Notes under the pieces: generated by a model
What the model saw: the letters and a program-made list of their open reading frames with translations, nothing else
Database searches by the model: none
What the model was told of the DNA's origin: nothing
Shown here: positions 4,685 through 16,528 of the stretch, one piece after another
Numbering within the stretch: the stretch's first letter is position 1
Layout of the letters: every line of letters starts with the position of its first letter
Position numbers and translations under genes: made by a program
Assembly (NCBI GenBank): GCA_041674805.1
Contig: JBAYVA010000002.1
Location: 184,294-248,293 of the forward strand
Origin: Candidatus Magasanikiibacteriota bacterium
Lineage (GTDB): Bacteria; Patescibacteriota; Patescibacteriia; Magasanikbacterales; UBA922
Direction: 5' to 3'
DNA: 64,000 nt

Positions 4685-7192
4685 ATGGCACGTTTGAAAA
4701 GTATTATAAAATCAAAAAGTAGCACTGAAGAGAGTGCTGTGGAGGGAACTATTGTCGAAAAAATCGAACCTATCAATTTGGTGAAAGAAATGGAAACATC
4801 TTATTTGGATTATGCTATGAGTGTTATCGTTTCTCGTGCTTTGCCAGATGTGCGCGATGGTCTAAAACCTGTGCATCGTCGTATTTTGTATGCTATGTGG
4901 GAACTTGGTCTCAAACATAATTCTAAGTTTCGTAAATCAGCGCATGTGGTTGGTGGCGTAATGGCCAAATTCCATCCGCATGGTGATAGTGCTATTTATG
5001 ATTCGTTGGTACGTATGGCCCAAGATTTCAATATGCGTGAAATGTTGGTAAATGGTCAAGGTAACTTTGGTTCAATGGACGGAGATGGTGCTGCTGCTAT
5101 GCGTTATACAGAAGCCAAACTTCGTGCGATTGCTGAAGAATTGATTTTTGATATTGAAAAAAATACTGTAAATTTTTCACCTACTTATGATGGCTCTTAT
5201 AGAGAACCAAATGTTTTGCCTGCCAAATTACCAAATTTACTTTTGAATGGTAGTATGGGTATTGCGGTTGGTATGGCTACAAATATTCCTCCACATAATC
5301 TGACAGAACTTTGTGATGGTATTATGGCCTTGATTGAAAATCCAAAATTAGGAATTGAAGAATTAGGAAATTATATCAAAGGACCAGATTTCCCAACTGG
5401 TGGTATTATTTATAACAAAAAAGATATTGAAGTAGCTTATGCTACTGGACGTGGTGGTATTGTGATGCGTGCTAAAACAGATATTCAAGAATCTGAAAAA
5501 AATGATAAAATGCAAATTATCATTACCGAAGTTCCTTATCAAGTAAACAAAGCAACTTTGATAGAAAAAATTGCGAGCTTAGTACAAGAAAAGAAAATTG
5601 AAGGTATCAAAGATTTGCGTGATGAATCAAACAAAGAAGGTGTCAGAATTGTGATTGAGTTGAAAAAAGATTCTTATCCAAAAAAAGTTTTGAACAAACT
5701 TTTCAAATTAACAGAATTGCAAACAACTTTTCACGTTAATATGTTGGCTCTTGTAGATGGTATTCAGCCTCGTGTTTTGAATTTGAAAACTATTTTGGAA
5801 GAATACTTGAAACATCGTCAAATAGTTGTGCGTCGTCGTACTCAATTTGATTTGGATAAAGCTTTGGATAGAGCTCATATTTTGGAAGGTTTGAAAAAAG
5901 CTTTGGACAAAATTGATCTTATTATTGCTCTTATTCGAAAATCAAAAGACAAAGATGAAGCCAAAATAAATTTGATGGAAAAATTTTCTTTTACCGAAAA
6001 GCAAACTATGGCAATTTTGGAAATGAGATTGCAACAACTTGCTAATTTGGAACGTCAAAAAATAGAAGATGAACTTAAAGAAAAACAAAAATTGATTGCA
6101 GAATTAGAAGCTATTTTGAAGAGTGAAAAAAGAATTATGAGTATTATCAAATCTGAAGTAGAAACTATTAGACAAGTTTATGGTAATGCTAGACGTACTC
6201 AAATTGTTTCTCATGGTGTCAAAGAATTTAATATTGAAGATTTGGTACCAAATGAACCAACTCTTATTATCTCTACTCGTGATGGTTATATCAAACGTTT
6301 GCCTCCAGATACTTTCAAACAACAAAGCCGTGGTGGCAAAGGTGTGATTGGTTTGACCACCAAAGAAGAAGATGTTGTAGACAAAATTATTTCTACCAAT
6401 ACTCATGATAATATTTTGTTTTTTACTACACGTGGTCGTGTATTTCAATTAAGTGCTTATGATATACCTTTGACTGCTCGTACCTCAAAAGGACAAGCTT
6501 TGGTAAATTTCTTACAACTTGCACCAAATGAAAAAGTTTCTGTATTTTTGTCACTTGCTAATTTGAGTAGTTATGAATCATTAGTGATGGTGACAAGTAA
6601 AGGTAATATCAAAAAAACTAAGATTGAAGATTTTAAACACGTTCGCAAATCTGGTTTGATTGCTTTAAAACTAAAAGAAAATGATTTGTTGGAATGGGTA
6701 CAACCAACAGCTGGTAACAATGATGTGATGATTACTACTTCTATGGGTCAATCTATTAGATTTAGAGAAAAAGATGTTCGTCCAATGGGTCGTACTGCTT
6801 CCGGTGTACGTGCTATCAAATTAAAATCAACAGATGAAGTAGTAGGTATGAGTATTTTGGATAATAGTTTGGTAAAAATGAAAGTCTTGGAATTGTTGGT
6901 AGTCTCTGAAAATGGTTTAGGCAAGAAAACTAAAGTCAATGAATACAAAGTGCAAGGTCGTGGTGGTAGTGGTATCAAGACGATGGCTGTTACTTCCAAA
7001 ACCGGTAAAATTATTAGTAGTCAGATGGTAAATAGTACTGAAGAAAAAGATATTATGATAATTTCGGTCAAAGGACAAGTCATTCGTACTTCTCTTAAGA
7101 GTATTTCTACTCTTGGCAGAGCGACTCAAGGTGTTCGTATTATGCGTTTCAAGCAAGAAGGGGACAAAGTAGCAGCGATAGCATTTGTTTAA
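4685..7192 (+). CDS. gyrA: DNA gyrase subunit A.
   Basis: YAMSVIVSRALPDVRDGLKPVHRRILYAM and the catalytic-Tyr region; 835 aa with C-terminal beta-pinwheel repeats. Confidence 0.95.
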   Translation: MARLKSIIKSKSSTEESAVEGTIVEKIEPINLVKEMETSYLDYAMSVIVSRALPDVRDGLKPVHRRILYAMWELGLKHNSKFRKSAHVVGGVMAKFHPHGDSAIYDSLVRMAQDFNMREMLVNGQGNFGSMDGDGAAAMRYTEAKLRAIAEELIFDIEKNTVNFSPTYDGSYREPNVLPAKLPNLLLNGSMGIAVGMATNIPPHNLTELCDGIMALIENPKLGIEELGNYIKGPDFPTGGIIYNKKDIEVAYATGRGGIVMRAKTDIQESEKNDKMQIIITEVPYQVNKATLIEKIASLVQEKKIEGIKDLRDESNKEGVRIVIELKKDSYPKKVLNKLFKLTELQTTFHVNMLALVDGIQPRVLNLKTILEEYLKHRQIVVRRRTQFDLDKALDRAHILEGLKKALDKIDLIIALIRKSKDKDEAKINLMEKFSFTEKQTMAILEMRLQQLANLERQKIEDELKEKQKLIAELEAILKSEKRIMSIIKSEVETIRQVYGNARRTQIVSHGVKEFNIEDLVPNEPTLIISTRDGYIKRLPPDTFKQQSRGGKGVIGLTTKEEDVVDKIISTNTHDNILFFTTRGRVFQLSAYDIPLTARTSKGQALVNFLQLAPNEKVSVFLSLANLSSYESLVMVTSKGNIKKTKIEDFKHVRKSGLIALKLKENDLLEWVQPTAGNNDVMITTSMGQSIRFREKDVRPMGRTASGVRAIKLKSTDEVVGMSILDNSLVKMKVLELLVVSENGLGKKTKVNEYKVQGRGGSGIKTMAVTSKTGKIISSQMVNSTEEKDIMIISVKGQVIRTSLKSISTLGRATQGVRIMRFKQEGDKVAAIAFV

Positions 7193-10772: not shown

Positions 10773-11242
10773 ATTTTTTTTGATAAAATATAAGTCGTTA
10801 CTTTTTGATTTTCAATCAAGTCAAAAGATTTTTTTTGTAATTTGTAACCTTGTTTTTGATAAAATGCTTTGGCTGTAATAGTTGATTGTACTTTTATTTT
10901 TTTACAGCCTTGTTTGCACAAAGATTTTTCAACTGTTTTGATAAGTTTATTACCAACACCTTTGCCAATATAATCTTTGTGAACATAAAGTCCCCAGATT
11001 TCACATTTGTAAAAAGGATGATCTGTAAAACCAATAATTTTTTCACCATCAAGAGCGACCCATCTTTTGCACTTGTTGGCGCTATCACGAAAACGCTTAG
11101 CAGAAGTGCGACCAGACCAAACTTTGATTACTTCAGGAGTGTAATCATTTTTATTTACGTTTCTGATTGTTTGTCTATGCATGCGAGCTATGGCTGCATA
11201 ATTTTCATCGCGAGCAAAGCGGATTTTCATATTTTTGTTCAT
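10769..11242 (-). CDS. GNAT-family N-acetyltransferase.
   Basis: The acetyl-CoA motif region 'VHKDYIGKGVGNKLI'; 157 aa. Confidence 0.7.
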   Translation of the reverse strand: MNKNMKIRFARDENYAAIARMHRQTIRNVNKNDYTPEVIKVWSGRTSAKRFRDSANKCKRWVALDGEKIIGFTDHPFYKCEIWGLYVHKDYIGKGVGNKLIKTVEKSLCKQGCKKIKVQSTITAKAFYQKQGYKLQKKSFDLIENQKVTTYILSKKI

Positions 11243-11258
11243 TATTTATGTATATATT

Positions 11259-11462
11259 TTAGCTTGTTGTTGGTTTTTTGGCAAACATTTTTTTAATTTT
11301 GGATAAACTTGGATAAACAAAGTCGTTTTCTCCATCTATAAAACCTATAAAATATTTTTTTTCTAATTTTTGTAGAATGTATAGATTTTTTATTATTTTT
11401 TTATAATCATTTTTAGTATATAATGCTTTTTCAGGATATTGATTAAATACAAAGATTAACAT
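11259..11462 (-). CDS. Hypothetical small protein.
   Basis: 67-aa ORF with an AAGGTGA Shine-Dalgarno about 8 nt upstream. Confidence 0.35.
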   Translation of the reverse strand: MLIFVFNQYPEKALYTKNDYKKIIKNLYILQKLEKKYFIGFIDGENDFVYPSLSKIKKMFAKKPTTS

Positions 11463-11582
11463 TTTAAATTTACTTTCACCTTCTTTTAATTGAGTTAATT
11501 TATCTTCTATTTTTGAATTAAATTTTTTTATAAATCTATCATCATCAAGAATATAATAATTTTGTTTTTCATTTTTTTTGCG

Positions 11583-11915
11583 TTAATGTTCTTTGGTAAA
11601 GCAAGTTACTTCTATATCAAATTTATCATTTGATAAACTGGCTAATATATCAACATTTTTCTTTTTTTTATGTCTTTTTAATATTTCTATATTTTTAAAA
11701 GATATCGTATTTAAAAAAATTACAGAACGAAGTTCTGCAAGAATAGATTCTAGTTTTTCTTTTTTAGTGTCTACTATAATATAATCACATTTTTCTAAGA
11801 TTTCTTCTTTTGTATATTTTGTTATTTTAGATACTTTTTCTAATAAAATTTTTACTTTGTTTAGATTATCATTTGTATACCCTAAATTTTTTATATAATT
11901 AAAAAATGGTTCTAT
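11583..11915 (-). CDS. Hypothetical protein; the start is taken at MIEPFF, downstream of the tRNA.
   Basis: The listed ORF 11583..12017 runs through the tRNA-Ser gene, so the realistic start is the internal Met. Confidence 0.4.
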   Translation of the reverse strand: MEPFFNYIKNLGYTNDNLNKVKILLEKVSKITKYTKEEILEKCDYIIVDTKKEKLESILAELRSVIFLNTISFKNIEILKRHKKKKNVDILASLSNDKFDIEVTCFTKEH

Positions 11916-11932
11916 CATATTTTTAAATTTAG

Positions 11933-12023
11933 CGGAGAGAGAGGGATTCGAACCCTCGGTCCCGATATGATCGGGACACCGCTTTTCGAGAGCGGCACCT
12001 TCAACCAACTCAGACATCTCTCC
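11933..12023 (-). tRNA. tRNA-Ser (anticodon CGA), a type II tRNA with a long variable arm.
   Basis: Reverse complement GGAGAGATGTCTGAGTTGGTTGAAGGTGCCGCTCTCGAAAAGCGGTGTCCCGATCATATCGGGACCGAGGGTTCGAATCCCTCTCTCTCCG. The acceptor GGAGAGA/TCTCTCC pairs fully, the anticodon loop is CTCGAAA, the variable stem is TCCCGAT/ATCGGGA and the T-arm is GAGGGTTCGAATCCCTC. Confidence 0.85.
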
Positions 12024-12041
12024 ATGTTAATTATACAGAAT

Positions 12042-13295
12042 TTAGTTTGTATAATTAATTATTTTTTTTGATAAACTTAAATATATTAAAAACCAAAACA
12101 GAATGGCTAAATCGTTTTTTATATAAGGTGAATCTACTAAACCTGTTATAAGTAACATTAGTAAACTTAATAATAAAAAGTTATTATAAATATTTTTTTC
12201 TTTGATATTTTTGTGTAATATATATACTAAGATTATTATAAATGATAGCAAACCTATTAATCCAGTATTTACCCAAATTGTCAAAAATATGTTGTGAGGA
12301 TGATGGTATATTTCAATATATTCACCATTTACTTTTTGATGATATGTTTTTATTTCTTGGCTATAAGAACCTAAACCACTTCCTTTTATTGGATGATCTT
12401 TTAAATACTCTAAAGTTTCTTTCCAAATTCCAATTCTAATTTGTCCAGATCTGTCTTGTAGTATTAATTCTGTTTTTATATTTTGTAATTTTGGTAAATT
12501 AAAAATTAATAGTGATGAAAATATTGTTAATATTATGATAATCCAACGTGTTTTTTTATAGAATAGAAGAATTAAAAATATTGCACTGAAAATACTTACC
12601 AAAGCTCCTGTAGACTTGGCAAAGAATATAGCAGGTAATGATGTAATTATAAATAAAGTTCCTAATAAAAAAGGCCATGATTTCACTGAGTGGTTTTTTA
12701 GATTATATAGTGCTATTGCAAAAATTGGTGCCAAAAATAATCCAACTCCATTTGGAAATCCATACCATGCTGTTACTCTGTAAGTATTAAGATTTTCCCA
12801 AAAAGCATATGGTACAAAAAATCCTGTAAAATGTTGATAAATAGCAAATAAGGATGTGGCTAGTCCAGACATTAATAAACCATTTATTATATATTTTTTT
12901 ATATCTATAGATATATTTGTAATTATAAAAAATAGTATTATTGGTTCTAGATAAAAAGCTTTCCATTCACCTAATGCTTGTTTTGTGTTGTGGTTAAATA
13001 ATATAGATACAGTAGCAAAAAATAAAAATAATAAAATTGAGATGTATAATAATTTATTTTTTTTAAAATTTATTTTTAAATTATTTATAATTTCATTTTT
13101 ATATTTTATAAAACTAATTATAATTAGTATGATAATTTGTAATTCTAAAAAAGTTGTTGGAATTTCTAAAAAATTAAAACGTAATAGATAAGTAGGTAAA
13201 AACAAAGCTAATAAAAAAAATGAGTATTCAATTTTTTTGAAACTAATAATTGTAAAAATACTTAAATAAACAATTGTTAAAAACCACATTATCAT
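12042..13295 (-). CDS. O-antigen ligase / Wzy-like polysaccharide polymerase family membrane protein (paralog 1).
   Basis: 12 predicted TM segments; 'HPHNIFLTIWVNTGLIGL' and 'LVDSPYIKNDLAILFW' motifs are shared with the gene at 13732..15006. Confidence 0.65.
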   Translation of the reverse strand: MIMWFLTIVYLSIFTIISFKKIEYSFFLLALFLPTYLLRFNFLEIPTTFLELQIIILIIISFIKYKNEIINNLKINFKKNKLLYISILLFLFFATVSILFNHNTKQALGEWKAFYLEPIILFFIITNISIDIKKYIINGLLMSGLATSLFAIYQHFTGFFVPYAFWENLNTYRVTAWYGFPNGVGLFLAPIFAIALYNLKNHSVKSWPFLLGTLFIITSLPAIFFAKSTGALVSIFSAIFLILLFYKKTRWIIIILTIFSSLLIFNLPKLQNIKTELILQDRSGQIRIGIWKETLEYLKDHPIKGSGLGSYSQEIKTYHQKVNGEYIEIYHHPHNIFLTIWVNTGLIGLLSFIIILVYILHKNIKEKNIYNNFLLLSLLMLLITGLVDSPYIKNDLAILFWFLIYLSLSKKIINYTN

Positions 13296-13466
13296 ATTAT
13301 TTTTTTATACTTAAAATTTCTTTTATTTCGTTTTTATTTAATAGGTGTTTATTGAATATGATATTAATATACTAAATAATATAACAATTAGTAGTTGCAA
13401 CTTATATTTTAGATTTCTTTTTATTACTGTCATCCATGCAGCTCCATACATACCATATTTTGGTAT

Positions 13467-13555
13467 AAATGAGAGAGGGATTCGAACCCTCGGTCCAGCT
13501 TGCGCAGAACAACTGATTTCGAGTCAGTCCCATTCGACCACTCTGGCATCTCTCC
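13467..13555 (-). tRNA. Second tRNA-Ser(CGA)-like gene whose 3' acceptor strand is replaced by unrelated sequence; possibly a pseudo-tRNA.
   Basis: Reverse complement GGAGAGATGCCAGAGTGGTCGAATGGGACTGACTCGAAATCAGTTGTTCTGCGCAAGCTGGACCGAGGGTTCGAATCCCTCTCTC, but then ATTTATACC follows instead of TCCG. The D-arm, anticodon arm (CTCGAAA) and T-arm are canonical. The last three acceptor pairs would be A-A, G-U and G-U. Confidence 0.55.
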
Positions 13556-13731
13556 ATCTTTTAAGTAATAAGCAAATTAAGCAGAATATGCAGAATAAGT
13601 GGCTTATTGTGTGTAAGCACCTTGTAAGCATTGTTAATGTTATTACAAATTAACCACAAAAGCAAGTTCATGTCTAAATTTGCCAAAAGCTCTTTTTTTG
13701 GCTATGATATATTTGCTTAATCAAATATATT

Positions 13732-15006
13732 ATGCTTATTTTAGCTCTTATTTACTTTGTTACAATTTTGTTTGTTAGTTACAAGAATTTTGCTTTTGGA
13801 CTTTATAGTTTTGCTTTGGTTTTGCCATTATATTTTTTACGTCCACAAATTGGATTTTTGCCAACGACTATCTTAGAAATTCATTTTGGAGCGGTCTTTT
13901 TGGTCTGGCTTTTTTCTTATGCCAAACAAGATTGGAGCAGAATCAAAGAATTTTTGCAAAATAATAAATTATTTAGTTGGGGTTTGTTTGTTTTTTTTGT
14001 AGCTTCTTTTGCAAGTATTTTCGTCAGTGCCATTGGTTCATTTGAACCTCTACAAAAAATTATTTTGGCAGCTGGTATTTGGCGAGCTTATTTCTTGGAG
14101 CCAATCATATTATTTTTTATTTTAGTTGGTCGTCAGCAAAATTTTTCCAAAATGAAAATGATTTGGGCTTTTTTTATCAGTGCTTTTTTAGTTAGTCTGG
14201 TAGCTGTAGCACAAGAAATATTTTTTGTTTTAAACTGGCAATTTCCATATTTTGGTATGGCTATTCCTGGTCGTATGAATAGTGTTTATACCACACCAAA
14301 TGCGATTGGACTTTTTACTTTGCCGATTTTATTTTTGAGTTTGTTTTTACAAAATAATTTTTACAACAACAATCAAAAATATTTTTATTATTTTTCAATT
14401 CTCATCATTTTACTTGCCAATTTTTTTTCTTTTTCGCAAGGTGCTTGGGTAGCTTTGGCAGCGGCTAGTGTGGTTTATCTATTTTTTGTTGGTTACAAAA
14501 AGTTTAGTATAAGTTTGGTGGTTTTGGGTATGATGATTGTCTTAGTAATACCTTCTTTCCGTTCTGTAATACTGTTTCAAGACAAAGCAGGTAATAATAG
14601 ATTTGTTTTAGCTGAGTTTACTTGGGATTATTTGACTGATTCTCCTAGACAATTTGTGACCGGAGCAGGACTTCGTAATTTTTATGATGCGGTAGAGAAT
14701 CCTCGTCGTGATCCAAAAAAATTGGAACCTTTGACTTTTCCTCACAATATTTTTTTGAATTTTTGGTCAGAAGTTGGTTTGTTTGGTATGTTGTCTTTTG
14801 TTTTTATTTATTTTTTACTGGTGAGGCAATCTTTCAAACTTGATCACAAAAAAAGAGCTATTTTTTTGGCTCTTTTAGTTGCTATATTCGTACAGGGATT
14901 AGTAGATGTTCCTTATTTCAAAAATGATTTAGCTTTTGCTTTTTGGATTATTGTTTTTTTTATTTTTTTCAATCAAATAACTTTAGTAGAAAAAAAGTCT
15001 GTGTAG
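13732..15006 (+). CDS. O-antigen ligase / Wzy-like family membrane protein (paralog 2).
   Basis: 'FPHNIFLNFWSEVGLFGM' and 'LVDVPYFKNDLAFAFW' are paralogous to the gene at 12042..13295; multi-TM. Confidence 0.65.
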   Translation: MLILALIYFVTILFVSYKNFAFGLYSFALVLPLYFLRPQIGFLPTTILEIHFGAVFLVWLFSYAKQDWSRIKEFLQNNKLFSWGLFVFFVASFASIFVSAIGSFEPLQKIILAAGIWRAYFLEPIILFFILVGRQQNFSKMKMIWAFFISAFLVSLVAVAQEIFFVLNWQFPYFGMAIPGRMNSVYTTPNAIGLFTLPILFLSLFLQNNFYNNNQKYFYYFSILIILLANFFSFSQGAWVALAAASVVYLFFVGYKKFSISLVVLGMMIVLVIPSFRSVILFQDKAGNNRFVLAEFTWDYLTDSPRQFVTGAGLRNFYDAVENPRRDPKKLEPLTFPHNIFLNFWSEVGLFGMLSFVFIYFLLVRQSFKLDHKKRAIFLALLVAIFVQGLVDVPYFKNDLAFAFWIIVFFIFFNQITLVEKKSV

Positions 15007-15037
15007 TTTTAAACTAAAAATTTTGTTTGAGTTCAAA

Positions 15038-16528
15038 TTATTTTTTCAATATGAGCAACTCTTTGAGTTGTTCTTTTGATATTGCTTTACTAACTAAGAT
15101 CATAACAAAATATACTAAGGCTGCTAGTATAATTAAGATTATAATTGGTAAATTTTTCCACCAAATTATGGCAAGACCCATCACAGCACTAGACAAGATT
15201 ACTTTAATCAAAAAAACAAAGTTTAGTTTTTCTTTGATATTTTTTTGTGCGACCAAAGTCAACATAATAGCGGCATACCATTCAGAAAAAACTGTCATCC
15301 AAGCTGCACCATACATGCCATATTTTGGTATAAAAATCATGTAGCCAATCAAAGTCAAAAAAGCATTAGTAATATATACCCAAAGTACTTTTTTTTGTAA
15401 ATTGACAGCGACTGCTAGATGACCAAAAATACCTGCCCAAAAGACACCAAAGACAGCTAAAGATAAAATTTGTAAAGCATCACCAGATAAAAAGAATTTA
15501 TTTCCAGCTACCAAAATCATTATTTCGTGTGATAACAAAAATAAACCAGTAAACATTGGTATGGCTACTAGCATCATTGAGTTTACTGACATTTGATATC
15601 TTTTTTGAAATTCTTCTTTATTATTTTGGGCCCAAGAAGCTGCTAAGAGTGGAAGCATTATGCCCATAATCATCATAGCTGTTTGAACTACGATGTCTAT
15701 GACACGGTAAGCTGCTCCATAAATACTGACCTCTGCTTGGCTGGCAAAATAACTTAAGATTAAGATATCTCCTTTTAAATAAATAACATTAAAAATTATA
15801 GCGATAGCTATGGGCCACATTTTTATTATAATTTGTCGCCAGATTATTTTGTCAAATTCAAATTTTATTTTGTTGATTTTGTTTATATACAAATAGAGAG
15901 TCAGCGTATAAGCCAAACTAGCTAAAATGATAATAAACATTATATTCAAAAAATTGCTTTGGTAATAAATACCAATTACAAGTCCTAATACCAAAATTAC
16001 TCTACCAATAATTTCACCTAATGCTTGAATTTGCATTTTTAATTTTTCTTGTAAAAAACCTATAAAAACTTGGTTTAGAGCGATAGAAAAAAATGATATA
16101 GCTGTAAAAAAGATAGCTACTTTAACAATGCTTGGATAAGGCAAAAGCAAAGATGTTAGTGGGGCGATTGTCAAAAAGAATAAAGCTGAAAAGAATCTAA
16201 AGGTTATTAAATTATTAAAAATCTTTTCTTGTTCTTGTTTGTTTTCACTTAGCATTTGGGCAGTAAGGGGAGTCATGCCAAAATCAATCAATATACCAAT
16301 GACGCTCAAAAAAGAAATAGTAGTAATGTACCAACCAAATTTTTCTACACCTAAATAGCGGGTCATCATGGCTATAGCTACGAGTCCTAAAACGGTAGAT
16401 ATGATTTTACCTGCCATTTGAAAGAAAGTATTATGTGCGACTTGTTTTACAAGAGACATATGTTTATATATTTTAGTATTTTGTTTTATTTTTATGTTAA
16501 TTTTAGCAAATTGAGCTAAAATTAGCAA
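15038..16528 (-). CDS. Polysaccharide/oligosaccharide flippase (Wzx, MOP superfamily).
   Basis: 496 aa, about 14 TM helices, starting 'MSLVKQVAHNTFFQMAGKIISTVLGL' as is typical of Wzx. Confidence 0.7.
   Translation of the reverse strand: MLILAQFAKINIKIKQNTKIYKHMSLVKQVAHNTFFQMAGKIISTVLGLVAIAMMTRYLGVEKFGWYITTISFLSVIGILIDFGMTPLTAQMLSENKQEQEKIFNNLITFRFFSALFFLTIAPLTSLLLPYPSIVKVAIFFTAISFFSIALNQVFIGFLQEKLKMQIQALGEIIGRVILVLGLVIGIYYQSNFLNIMFIIILASLAYTLTLYLYINKINKIKFEFDKIIWRQIIIKMWPIAIAIIFNVIYLKGDILILSYFASQAEVSIYGAAYRVIDIVVQTAMMIMGIMLPLLAASWAQNNKEEFQKRYQMSVNSMMLVAIPMFTGLFLLSHEIMILVAGNKFFLSGDALQILSLAVFGVFWAGIFGHLAVAVNLQKKVLWVYITNAFLTLIGYMIFIPKYGMYGAAWMTVFSEWYAAIMLTLVAQKNIKEKLNFVFLIKVILSSAVMGLAIIWWKNLPIIILIILAALVYFVMILVSKAISKEQLKELLILKK

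Follow-up and report, generated by a model that had tools for sequence, protein, structure and literature searches.

A clipped tRNA-Ser(CGA) gene joined to a flippase relic points to two merged versions of a glycan locus in a Magasanikbacterium

Background

How does a serine tRNA gene come to end inside a remnant of a flippase gene? The question is raised by a glycan locus in a stretch of 64,000 nucleotides (nt) from a Candidatus Magasanikiibacteriota bacterium (assembly GCA_041674805.1, contig JBAYVA010000002.1), hereafter the window. One of two transfer RNA (tRNA) genes of the type tRNA-Ser(CGA) has lost its 3' end there and runs straight into a short copy of a segment of wzx, the flippase gene of the same locus. 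The initial annotation of this DNA, made from the letters alone, took the arrangement for an illegitimate recombination or duplication junction within the locus. Comparison with related genomes suggests another answer: the scar appears to mark where two different versions of the locus were joined, and not an internal duplication or inversion.

All coordinates given below are positions in the 64-kb window, which corresponds to contig k141_688583 of the metagenome assembly ERZ27247358. Loci of relatives were retrieved through homologues of both Wzy proteins of the window, and the loci compared are designated L005, L126, L128-L136, L139, and L140.

Anatomy of the junction

According to both ARAGORN and the Rfam model RF00005, the locus contains two minus-strand tRNA-Ser(CGA) genes (11932/3-12023 and 13467-13555), referred to below as tRNA 1 and tRNA 2. 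Read 5' to 3', tRNA 1 terminates in ...GGGTTCGAATCCCTC TCTCTCC G and is intact, and tRNA 2 terminates in ...GGGTTCGAATCCCTC TCTCATT T. The D, anticodon (CGA), long variable, and T arms of tRNA 2 are all recognized by the two programs. At its acceptor end, however, there are an A3-A70 mismatch, the wobble pairs G2-U71 and G1-U72, and U73 in place of the discriminator base G73, and the stem of seven pairs is reduced to 4 Watson-Crick pairs, 2 G-U pairs, and 1 A-A mismatch. The intact orthologue of tRNA 2 ends in TCTCTCC-G, and the same ...TCCG end is found in at least 114 of 117 metagenomic tRNA-Ser(CGA) genes with this T arm, as well as in all relatives. The description of one intact gene and one damaged at its 3' end (TCTCATT for TCTCTCC, with one mismatch and two G-U pairs) is thus borne out by gene calls, sequence, fold, and orthologue scores.

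The last tRNA-derived base of tRNA 2 is directly followed by a 44-nt match to the resident wzx, 13426-13469 being identical to 15291-15334 at 40 positions (91%). At the joint the sequence can be compared with that of intact genes: tRNA 2 orthologues read ...CCCTCTCTC before and TCCGCTAG... after the point of fusion, and wzx genes read ...ATGATT before and TTTATACC... after it. The two have at most 1 nt of microhomology there, which makes the join an illegitimate one, in agreement with the recombination junction originally proposed. As for the flippase match of about 45 nt reported at the same time, it is real, with the second coordinates (15299-15341) lying about 8 nt off.

A chance match of 40/44 in 64 kb would be expected at a rate of about 1e-8 by a rough estimate. 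Both copies of the motif encode the same peptide, whose part PKYGMYGAA occurs at only these two places in the window, and all 4 nucleotide differences are synonymous and fall in third positions, a pattern more in keeping with two alleles that were both functional as they diverged than with the decay of a local copy. This stretch forms the invariant core of the Wzx family concerned, and the wzx genes of other lineages match it as closely or more closely (L130 42/44, L128 42/45) than the resident gene does. A dispersed repeat, which the initial annotation had named as a possible refutation, was rejected, since no third copy is present in the window at up to 14 mismatches.

Regarding the state of tRNA 2, the scoring of both genes that had been suggested as a check gives nearly equal values with generic models, which barely tell the two apart: tRNA 2 receives 48.0 bits from RF00005 (gathering score 29) and tRNA 1 50.0 bits. 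The proper yardstick is the intact orthologues of tRNA 2, which score 58.7 (L133) and 57.2 bits (L129), so that tRNA 2 falls about 10.7 bits under its intact orthologue. Its predicted fold lacks the full acceptor stem (-27.9 versus -32.0 kcal/mol for the intact orthologue). With the stem weakened and U73 in place, charging with serine by seryl-tRNA synthetase and normal processing are unlikely, and tRNA 1, whose 3' end is intact, is probably the working tRNA-Ser(CGA). From these changes we infer a loss of tRNA 2 function; the earlier suggestion to this effect holds as far as the acceptor stem and G73 are concerned, the body of the gene being intact. An annotation should list tRNA 2 as a probable pseudogene.

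The two tRNA genes are about 76% identical to each other, and each has an orthologue of 94-97% identity in another lineage. The body of tRNA 2 shares 96.7% of its nucleotides with the intact tRNA gene in L133-135 and L005 and 93% with the one in L129. For tRNA 1, identity to the single gene copy in L130-132 is 94%, and its first 48 nt equal the tRNA of L128 without a difference.

A pseudogene of a second wzx

The 44-nt motif is not the only wzx-like sequence next to tRNA 2. Read along the minus strand from 13469 to 13296, the invariant motif is followed by an alignment gap of some 115 nt, a stretch of weak alignment that includes a 10-nt gap, and the last ~32 nt of a wzx gene. In total, about 174 nt survive of the ~297 nt that intact wzx genes have over the same part. 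The terminal ~32 nt match the extreme 3' end of wzx from L129 at 29/32 positions (z=8 against shuffles), and also those of L130 (z=4.3) and L128 (z=3.3), with no significant match to the resident wzx (z=1.1). The stop codon TAA at 13297-13299 lies one base ahead of the ATG of the adjoining gene for Wzy-A (...AAAAAAATAATATGAT...), as it does in L126 and L129, and the joint between wzx stop and WzyA start, ...AAAAAAATAA-N-ATG, is kept as in L126, L128, and L129.

Instead of a multi-helix protein of about 473 amino acids (aa), the stub retains 15 motif codons and the C-terminal tail, in two reading frames with stop codons between them. It is nevertheless collinear with wzx in its motif (40-42/44), its 3' end (29/32), and its stop adjoining the wzy start. 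Judged by sequence, 13296-13469 is a 5'-truncated and internally deleted pseudogene of a second wzx, in the linkage wzx-WzyA-tRNA found in some of the relatives, and should be annotated as a wzx pseudogene. It is on this point that the view of the 45 nt as a duplicated fragment of the resident flippase fails, as both the affinity of the tail to L129 and the closer motifs in L130 and L128 contradict it.

Two gene orders in related lineages

The junction is flanked by two diverged and oppositely oriented Wzy paralogues, as noted initially. At 30% identity, Wzy-A and Wzy-B are members of two distinct orthologous groups, both of wide distribution. In the relatives, these groups mark two different arrangements next to a SpoIID-like gene, from which the resident wzx diverges as it does in all relatives. 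In the A-type order (L126, L128, L129, and L140), wzx is followed by WzyA in the same direction after a gap of 1-5 nt, with tRNA-Ser(CGA) directly after WzyA in L128 and L129. In the B-type order (L130-136 and the distant L139, assembly GCA_964394405.1), wzx converges on WzyB, and tRNA-Ser(CGA) lies just upstream of WzyB. The window has elements of both: tRNA 1 starts 18 nt beyond the Wzy-A stop, as in A-type relatives, and Wzy-B faces the resident wzx.

Wzy-A is absent at this locus from the B-type loci L130-136 and L139, and the combination of Wzy-A and stub is absent from L130-136 and from L005, which has the start of Wzy-B. Three of these loci, L130-132, also have the gyrA, S1, photolyase, and DUF1801 flank of the window. 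In all relatives, the locus contains one intact tRNA-Ser(CGA) and no more. To the right of the slot, homology to relatives resumes at 13635, in the region upstream of Wzy-B, and blast matches extend into the gene, to 13786-13795. Table 1 lists the features of the window.

As for overall relatedness, RecA identity among the related lineages apart from L126 and L139 is 92-95%, and that of wzx is 65-74%; the sister pair L128/L129 reaches 83% in wzx. The lineages, with the same two exceptions, therefore appear to be roughly equidistant, which makes the difference between A and B an old dimorphism of one locus. Wzy-A of the window is 53-57% identical to its counterparts in L128, L129, and L126 (53% for L128), in comparison with 71-73% for the backbone wzx against L128 and L129.

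Table 1. Features of the junction region in window coordinates
Feature	Position	Strand	Remarks
Illegitimate junction	13470-13471		tRNA-derived ...CCCTCTCTC joined to wzx ATTTATACC...; comparison with intact tRNA 2 orthologues
44-nt motif piece of the stub	13426-13469	-	encodes FIPKYGMYGAAWMTV; aligned with resident wzx
Stub of a second wzx, pseudogene	13296-13469	-	~376 codons lost at 5' end; alignment to 3' parts of wzx
Stub tail, wzx 3' end	13296-13328	-	last ~32 nt, encoding ...EIKEILSIKK*
tRNA 1, tRNA-Ser(CGA)	11933-12023	-	intact; acceptor GGAGAGA/TCTCTCC, G73
tRNA 2, tRNA-Ser(CGA) body	13471-13555	-	nucleotides 1 to ~69; last 5 nt (TCC G and trailer) missing
26-nt stretch, T arm and part of acceptor strand	11937-11962		identical to 13471-13496
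Wzy-A, O-antigen-ligase family (Wzy_C), 417 aa	12042-13295	-	group stands co-directionally after wzx in L126, L128, L129, L140
Wzy-B, Wzy_C, 424 aa	13732-15006	+	second orthologous group; converges on wzx as in L130-136, L139
Resident full-length wzx flippase, Polysacc_synt family, 473 aa from ATG	15038-16459	-	motif copy 15291-15334
Region upstream of Wzy-B, conserved	13635-13731	+	95% to L130, 89% to L133 and L005
Unique spacer, 79 nt	13556-13634		four TAAGCA hexamers
Conserved block, left edge of slot	11225-11285		homology stops after ...TTTTTTGGCAAA; alignment with L133, L130, L005; blast and tblastx against L005
orf67	11259-11462	-	no family match; GC 20.1%; in low-GC segment
orf111, orphan open reading frame	11583-11918	-	GC 19.3%; only self-matches among 5.8 billion proteins

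A variable slot beside the tRNA gene

In the window, the slot at the 3' side of the tRNA gene is filled by orf67, orf111, tRNA 1, Wzy-A, and the wzx stub, and its content differs between lineages. The corresponding cargo is an OCD-family gene in L130-132, the genes for PycC and PycTM in L133-135 and L005 (PADLOC E=1.6e-56 and 7.3e-31, respectively), transglutaminase and GrpB genes in L128, and, in L139, genes for a large serine recombinase and several helix-turn-helix (HTH) proteins that converge on the 3' end of the tRNA.

The segment of the window deviates in guanine + cytosine (GC) content. With 21.8%, Wzy-A has the lowest value of the 43 window genes, and both small open reading frames (Table 1) are lower still, versus a gene mean of 33.0% (standard deviation 3.6). 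Wzy-A is 8.9 points below the resident wzx, and the same gap is 3.4-5 points in relatives. Together with the divergence of Wzy-A, which is higher than that of the backbone wzx, and with its absence from relatives that have the same flanks, this low GC content makes the segment best read as captured foreign DNA. Searches of orf67 and orf111 with Pfam, PADLOC, and PHROGs returned nothing meaningful.

Several further observations concern the slot. A leader/promoter block of about 60 nt at its left edge (11225-11285; L133:6232-6290; L130:6359-6420) stands upstream of a GNAT gene in the window and of a NUDIX gene in L130, L133, and L005; the window has no NUDIX gene and L130 no GNAT gene. A promoter scan of 11200-13800 found no more promoter-like sites than expected from shuffled sequence, and one of the two terminator-like hits in this range consists of the T arm of tRNA 2 and the T-rich start of the stub. 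The PycC and PycTM genes form a Pycsar anti-phage pair (L133:6351-7585, also in L134 and L135; L005:858-2092), consisting of a cyclase of 238 aa and an effector of 170 aa. In L139, the serine recombinase of 537 aa adjoins Wzy-B (L139:4290-5903) with a gene call that runs through the tRNA (5810-5899), and this region resembles an element that integrated at the hot spot in question.

Regarding the tRNA genes themselves, scans of viral contigs with the anticodon arms of tRNA 1 and tRNA 2 returned nothing or unrelated contigs of 49-53% GC, which by sequence gives no sign of phage carriage of either tRNA. A metagenome scan with a degenerate pattern for both tRNA types matched unrelated soil bacteria, with no close relative among the matches listed. 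The metagenome contig L112 (8.2 kb, 35% GC), from an unrelated low-GC organism, has two tRNA-Ser(CGA) genes with differing variable arms, and paired genes of this kind are thus found elsewhere too.

The 79-nt spacer between tRNA 2 and the block upstream of Wzy-B has a homologue nowhere; its position is taken by a 35-nt leader in L130 and by a broken tRNA 1 half with a GC-rich hairpin in L133 and L136. Four of the 15 TAAGCA hexamers of the whole 64 kb cluster in it (13569-13630), and the cluster could be an array of regulator binding sites or a product of slippage.

As for the polymerase genes, the 3' ends of Wzy-A and Wzy-B (12059-12143 and 14896-14980) form an inverted repeat with 71% nucleotide similarity over 85 nt. 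The 3' end of Wzy-A is also 86% identical over 51 nt to that of Wzy-B from L130 (L130:9168-9218), at 30% identity of the proteins overall. In L136, wzx is called about 30 codons short (443 aa), with 160 nt separating it from Wzy-B (L136:1587-1745); a truncated C terminus or a frameshift where the two genes converge may account for this.

Origin of the scar

From this anatomy, the gene orders of the relatives, the composition, and the identity of the stub we infer the direction of transfer and the mechanism of joining. A fair balance of probability lies with the capture of a foreign fragment of an A-type locus, at the hot spot beside the tRNA gene of a B-type locus, through one illegitimate junction. 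In Magasanikbacteria, the small surface-glycan locus next to the SpoIID-like gene has two long-standing forms, and this genome would have had the B-type form, with wzx and WzyB converging and with tRNA 2 as its own tRNA. The newcomer would be the slot of about 2.2 kb from ~11286 to 13470, or at least 11963-13470, comprising the 3' stub of wzx, Wzy-A, tRNA 1, and probably both orphan reading frames. Its donor was most likely a lower-GC Magasanikbacterium relative with A-type order, whose wzx would have been severed at its most conserved motif. The right end of the fragment would have been joined without homology at about position 69 of tRNA 2, stripping the latter of its last acceptor bases and the discriminator base, and its left end would coincide with the conserved block that ends at 11285 or be found to the right of it.

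Several observations do not fit this account of capture smoothly. With six near-equidistant lineages (by the RecA and wzx identities given above), the order of events is unrooted. No donor is identifiable through homologues of Wzy-A and orf111, the best non-self match being 57% for Wzy-A and none for orf111. In the insert (orf67, orf111, and Wzy-A) neither an integrase or transposase gene nor a target-site duplication is present, the alignment of the middle ~95 nt of the stub to wzx is weak, and Wzy genes and orphan reading frames tend to be AT-rich anyway. The body of tRNA 2 is undecayed and still reaches its 48 bits with generic models, and some residual function is therefore conceivable from its sequence. 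An undamaged body suggests either that the event is recent or that some role remains for the gene.

Among the other explanations, a single crossover in the core of the tRNA ranks second, and we consider it unlikely. A small circular or tandem fragment made of the tRNA 1 body, the 26-nt core, the wzx stub, and Wzy-A would have recombined, within this core, with the resident tRNA 2 while that gene was still intact. The sound 3' end that tRNA 1 has today (TCC-G-CTA...), orf111, and orf67 would then be original resident sequence, about 1.5 kb would be foreign, and the damaged end would be an earlier illegitimate joint of the fragment's own. Such an event would yield exactly the present order and leave one working tRNA at every step, and the exact 26-nt direct repeats (11937-11962 and 13471-13496) bracket precisely the stub and Wzy-A. 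Moreover, the trailer after tRNA 1 is CTA, as after tRNA 2-type genes (CTA in L133 and L005, CT at the contig end in L129), and not CCA, as after the tRNA 1-type genes of L130, L128, and L139. The trailer argument, however, comes down to a single nucleotide, and beyond CTA nothing is common with the sequence downstream of tRNA 2 in L133. Besides, 26 nt is short for RecA-type recombination, and orf111 and orf67 are as GC-poor as Wzy-A, which agrees better with a joint arrival of all three. It is the single-nucleotide basis and the conflict with the low GC content of the two reading frames that put the crossover in second place.

It is less likely still that the window preserves an ancestral intermediate, in which a cassette of tRNA 2, WzyB, and a complete or partial wzx entered the wzx gene of an A-type locus, the stub being the rest of the original resident wzx and the other B-type lineages having later lost Wzy-A. 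The A-type order is indeed widespread, being present also in the more distant L126 and L140, and, as in L128, the GNAT side is where stub, Wzy-A, and tRNA 1 are located. The combination of B-type order and intact tRNA is old as well, however, as L139 has it with a WzyB of only 44% identity, and the intact state of tRNA 2 in L133, L136, and L129 marks the clipped state as derived. The tRNA 1 half upstream of tRNA 2 in L133 and L136 is not derivable from the order in the window either. Finally, sliding identity along the resident wzx reveals no sharp switch of affinity at the motif that would mark a breakpoint, and the GC content of Wzy-A is anomalous.

A local tandem duplication of a resident segment (wzx 3' end, wzy, and tRNA) with subsequent divergence is closest to the original proposal, and we give it very little credence. 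Formally, a tRNA cut at its 3' end and fused to a wzx cut at its 5' end is the joint that it predicts, and the copies of the motif are 91% identical. In contrast to this expectation, the copies are not each other's closest relatives for the tRNAs, the Wzy proteins, or the stub tail: the tRNAs and Wzy proteins each resemble those of other lineages more than one another, the tail matches L129 and not the resident gene, and the motif is no nearer to the resident gene than to other lineages. The copies also differ by 9 points in GC content. The least credible explanation, by a hair, is an assembly chimera between strains co-occurring in the metagenome. The A-type relative L128 does come from the same sample (ERZ27247358), but the 53% identity of its Wzy-A to that of the window indicates that the segment is not from that strain. 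The junction is present at 100% identity (7334/7334 nt) in a separate Logan assembly (L002), and a 317-kb JGI/NCBI contig, compared at the adjoining genes, has Wzy-A, Wzy-B, and orf111 together, with consecutive NCBI accessions for the two Wzy proteins (MFA7245184 and MFA7245185). Also, the joint has no repeat long enough to mislead an assembler at k=141.

Significance and comparison with known systems

A mirror image of the scar is found in sister lineages. At L133:7796-7898, L136:92-196, and L005:2303-2405 (also in L134 and L135), a tRNA 1-type gene breaks off after its 5' half, between nucleotides 34 and 35 of the anticodon. Behind the break come a perfect GC-rich hairpin (CGCCCAAGGCG-CACC-CGCCTTGGGCG), a spacer of about 30 nt, and an intact tRNA 2, in an order that two species have in common. 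Neither the window nor any of the other relatives has this hairpin. These relics are like the window in combining one broken and one intact tRNA-Ser(CGA) at the same site, but with the roles exchanged: there the cut gene, with the hairpin behind it, is tRNA 1, and the intact one is tRNA 2. The site has thus been struck at least twice, with one intact tRNA-Ser(CGA) surviving each time. This reciprocal pattern brings up a speculative idea, which we think improbable: insertions may repeatedly break the resident tRNA-Ser(CGA) while supplying a replacement, so that the cargo, Wzy-A in the window and the Pycsar pair in sister lineages, could be lost only together with the one functional tRNA ("cargo addiction through tRNA replacement"). 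Alternatively, the pattern could be the simple loss of a redundant copy.

The locus suggests that bacteria of the candidate phyla radiation (CPR), despite small genomes, exchange cassettes of surface-glycan polymerases/ligases, and that in Magasanikbacteria insertions recur at the 3' side of tRNA-Ser(CGA), a hot spot occupied, according to lineage, by glycan genes, a Pycsar pair, or a recombinase element. The presence of both Wzy types in one genome, where relatives have a single one at this locus, may mean a changed or dual surface glycan, and this would matter for phages and for the contact of these episymbionts with their host cells.

Genomic islands are described as elements that "preferentially integrate downstream from tRNAs" (PMC2884548). 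The locus resembles them in its variable cargo directly 3' of a tRNA gene, which differs by lineage and in L139 includes a recombinase element, and in the 26-nt direct repeat of a tRNA 3' segment that brackets part of the insert. Unlike such islands, the insert of the window has no integrase, with no recombinase domain in orf67, orf111, or Wzy-A, and the tRNA 3' end was not rebuilt at the joint. In addition, the far copy of the 26-nt repeat lies in a complete, different tRNA, and the cargo appears to be a piece of another lineage's homologous locus, including a whole second tRNA.

Closer parallels come from recombinant O-antigen and capsule clusters with relic fragments at their junctions, such as the hybrid rfb clusters of Salmonella and the cps serotype switches of pneumococci. 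As in these, wzx and wzy alleles act as exchangeable cassettes, a truncated wzx relic stands at the joint, and the imports are of low GC content. In contrast to them, the versions in the window are stacked in tandem and not swapped, the joint lies inside a tRNA gene, and the host belongs to the CPR. As for the mechanism, homology-facilitated illegitimate recombination during natural transformation has reportedly been described by de Vries and Wackernagel (in 2002) and by Prudhomme et al. (also in 2002). The window would resemble it in that one end could anchor in conserved sequence, either the block at 11225-11285 or the tRNA core, and in that homology at the opposite joint amounts to 1 nt at most. 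Taken together, the scar is a new example, in a CPR genome, of a known kind of event and not of a new mechanism.

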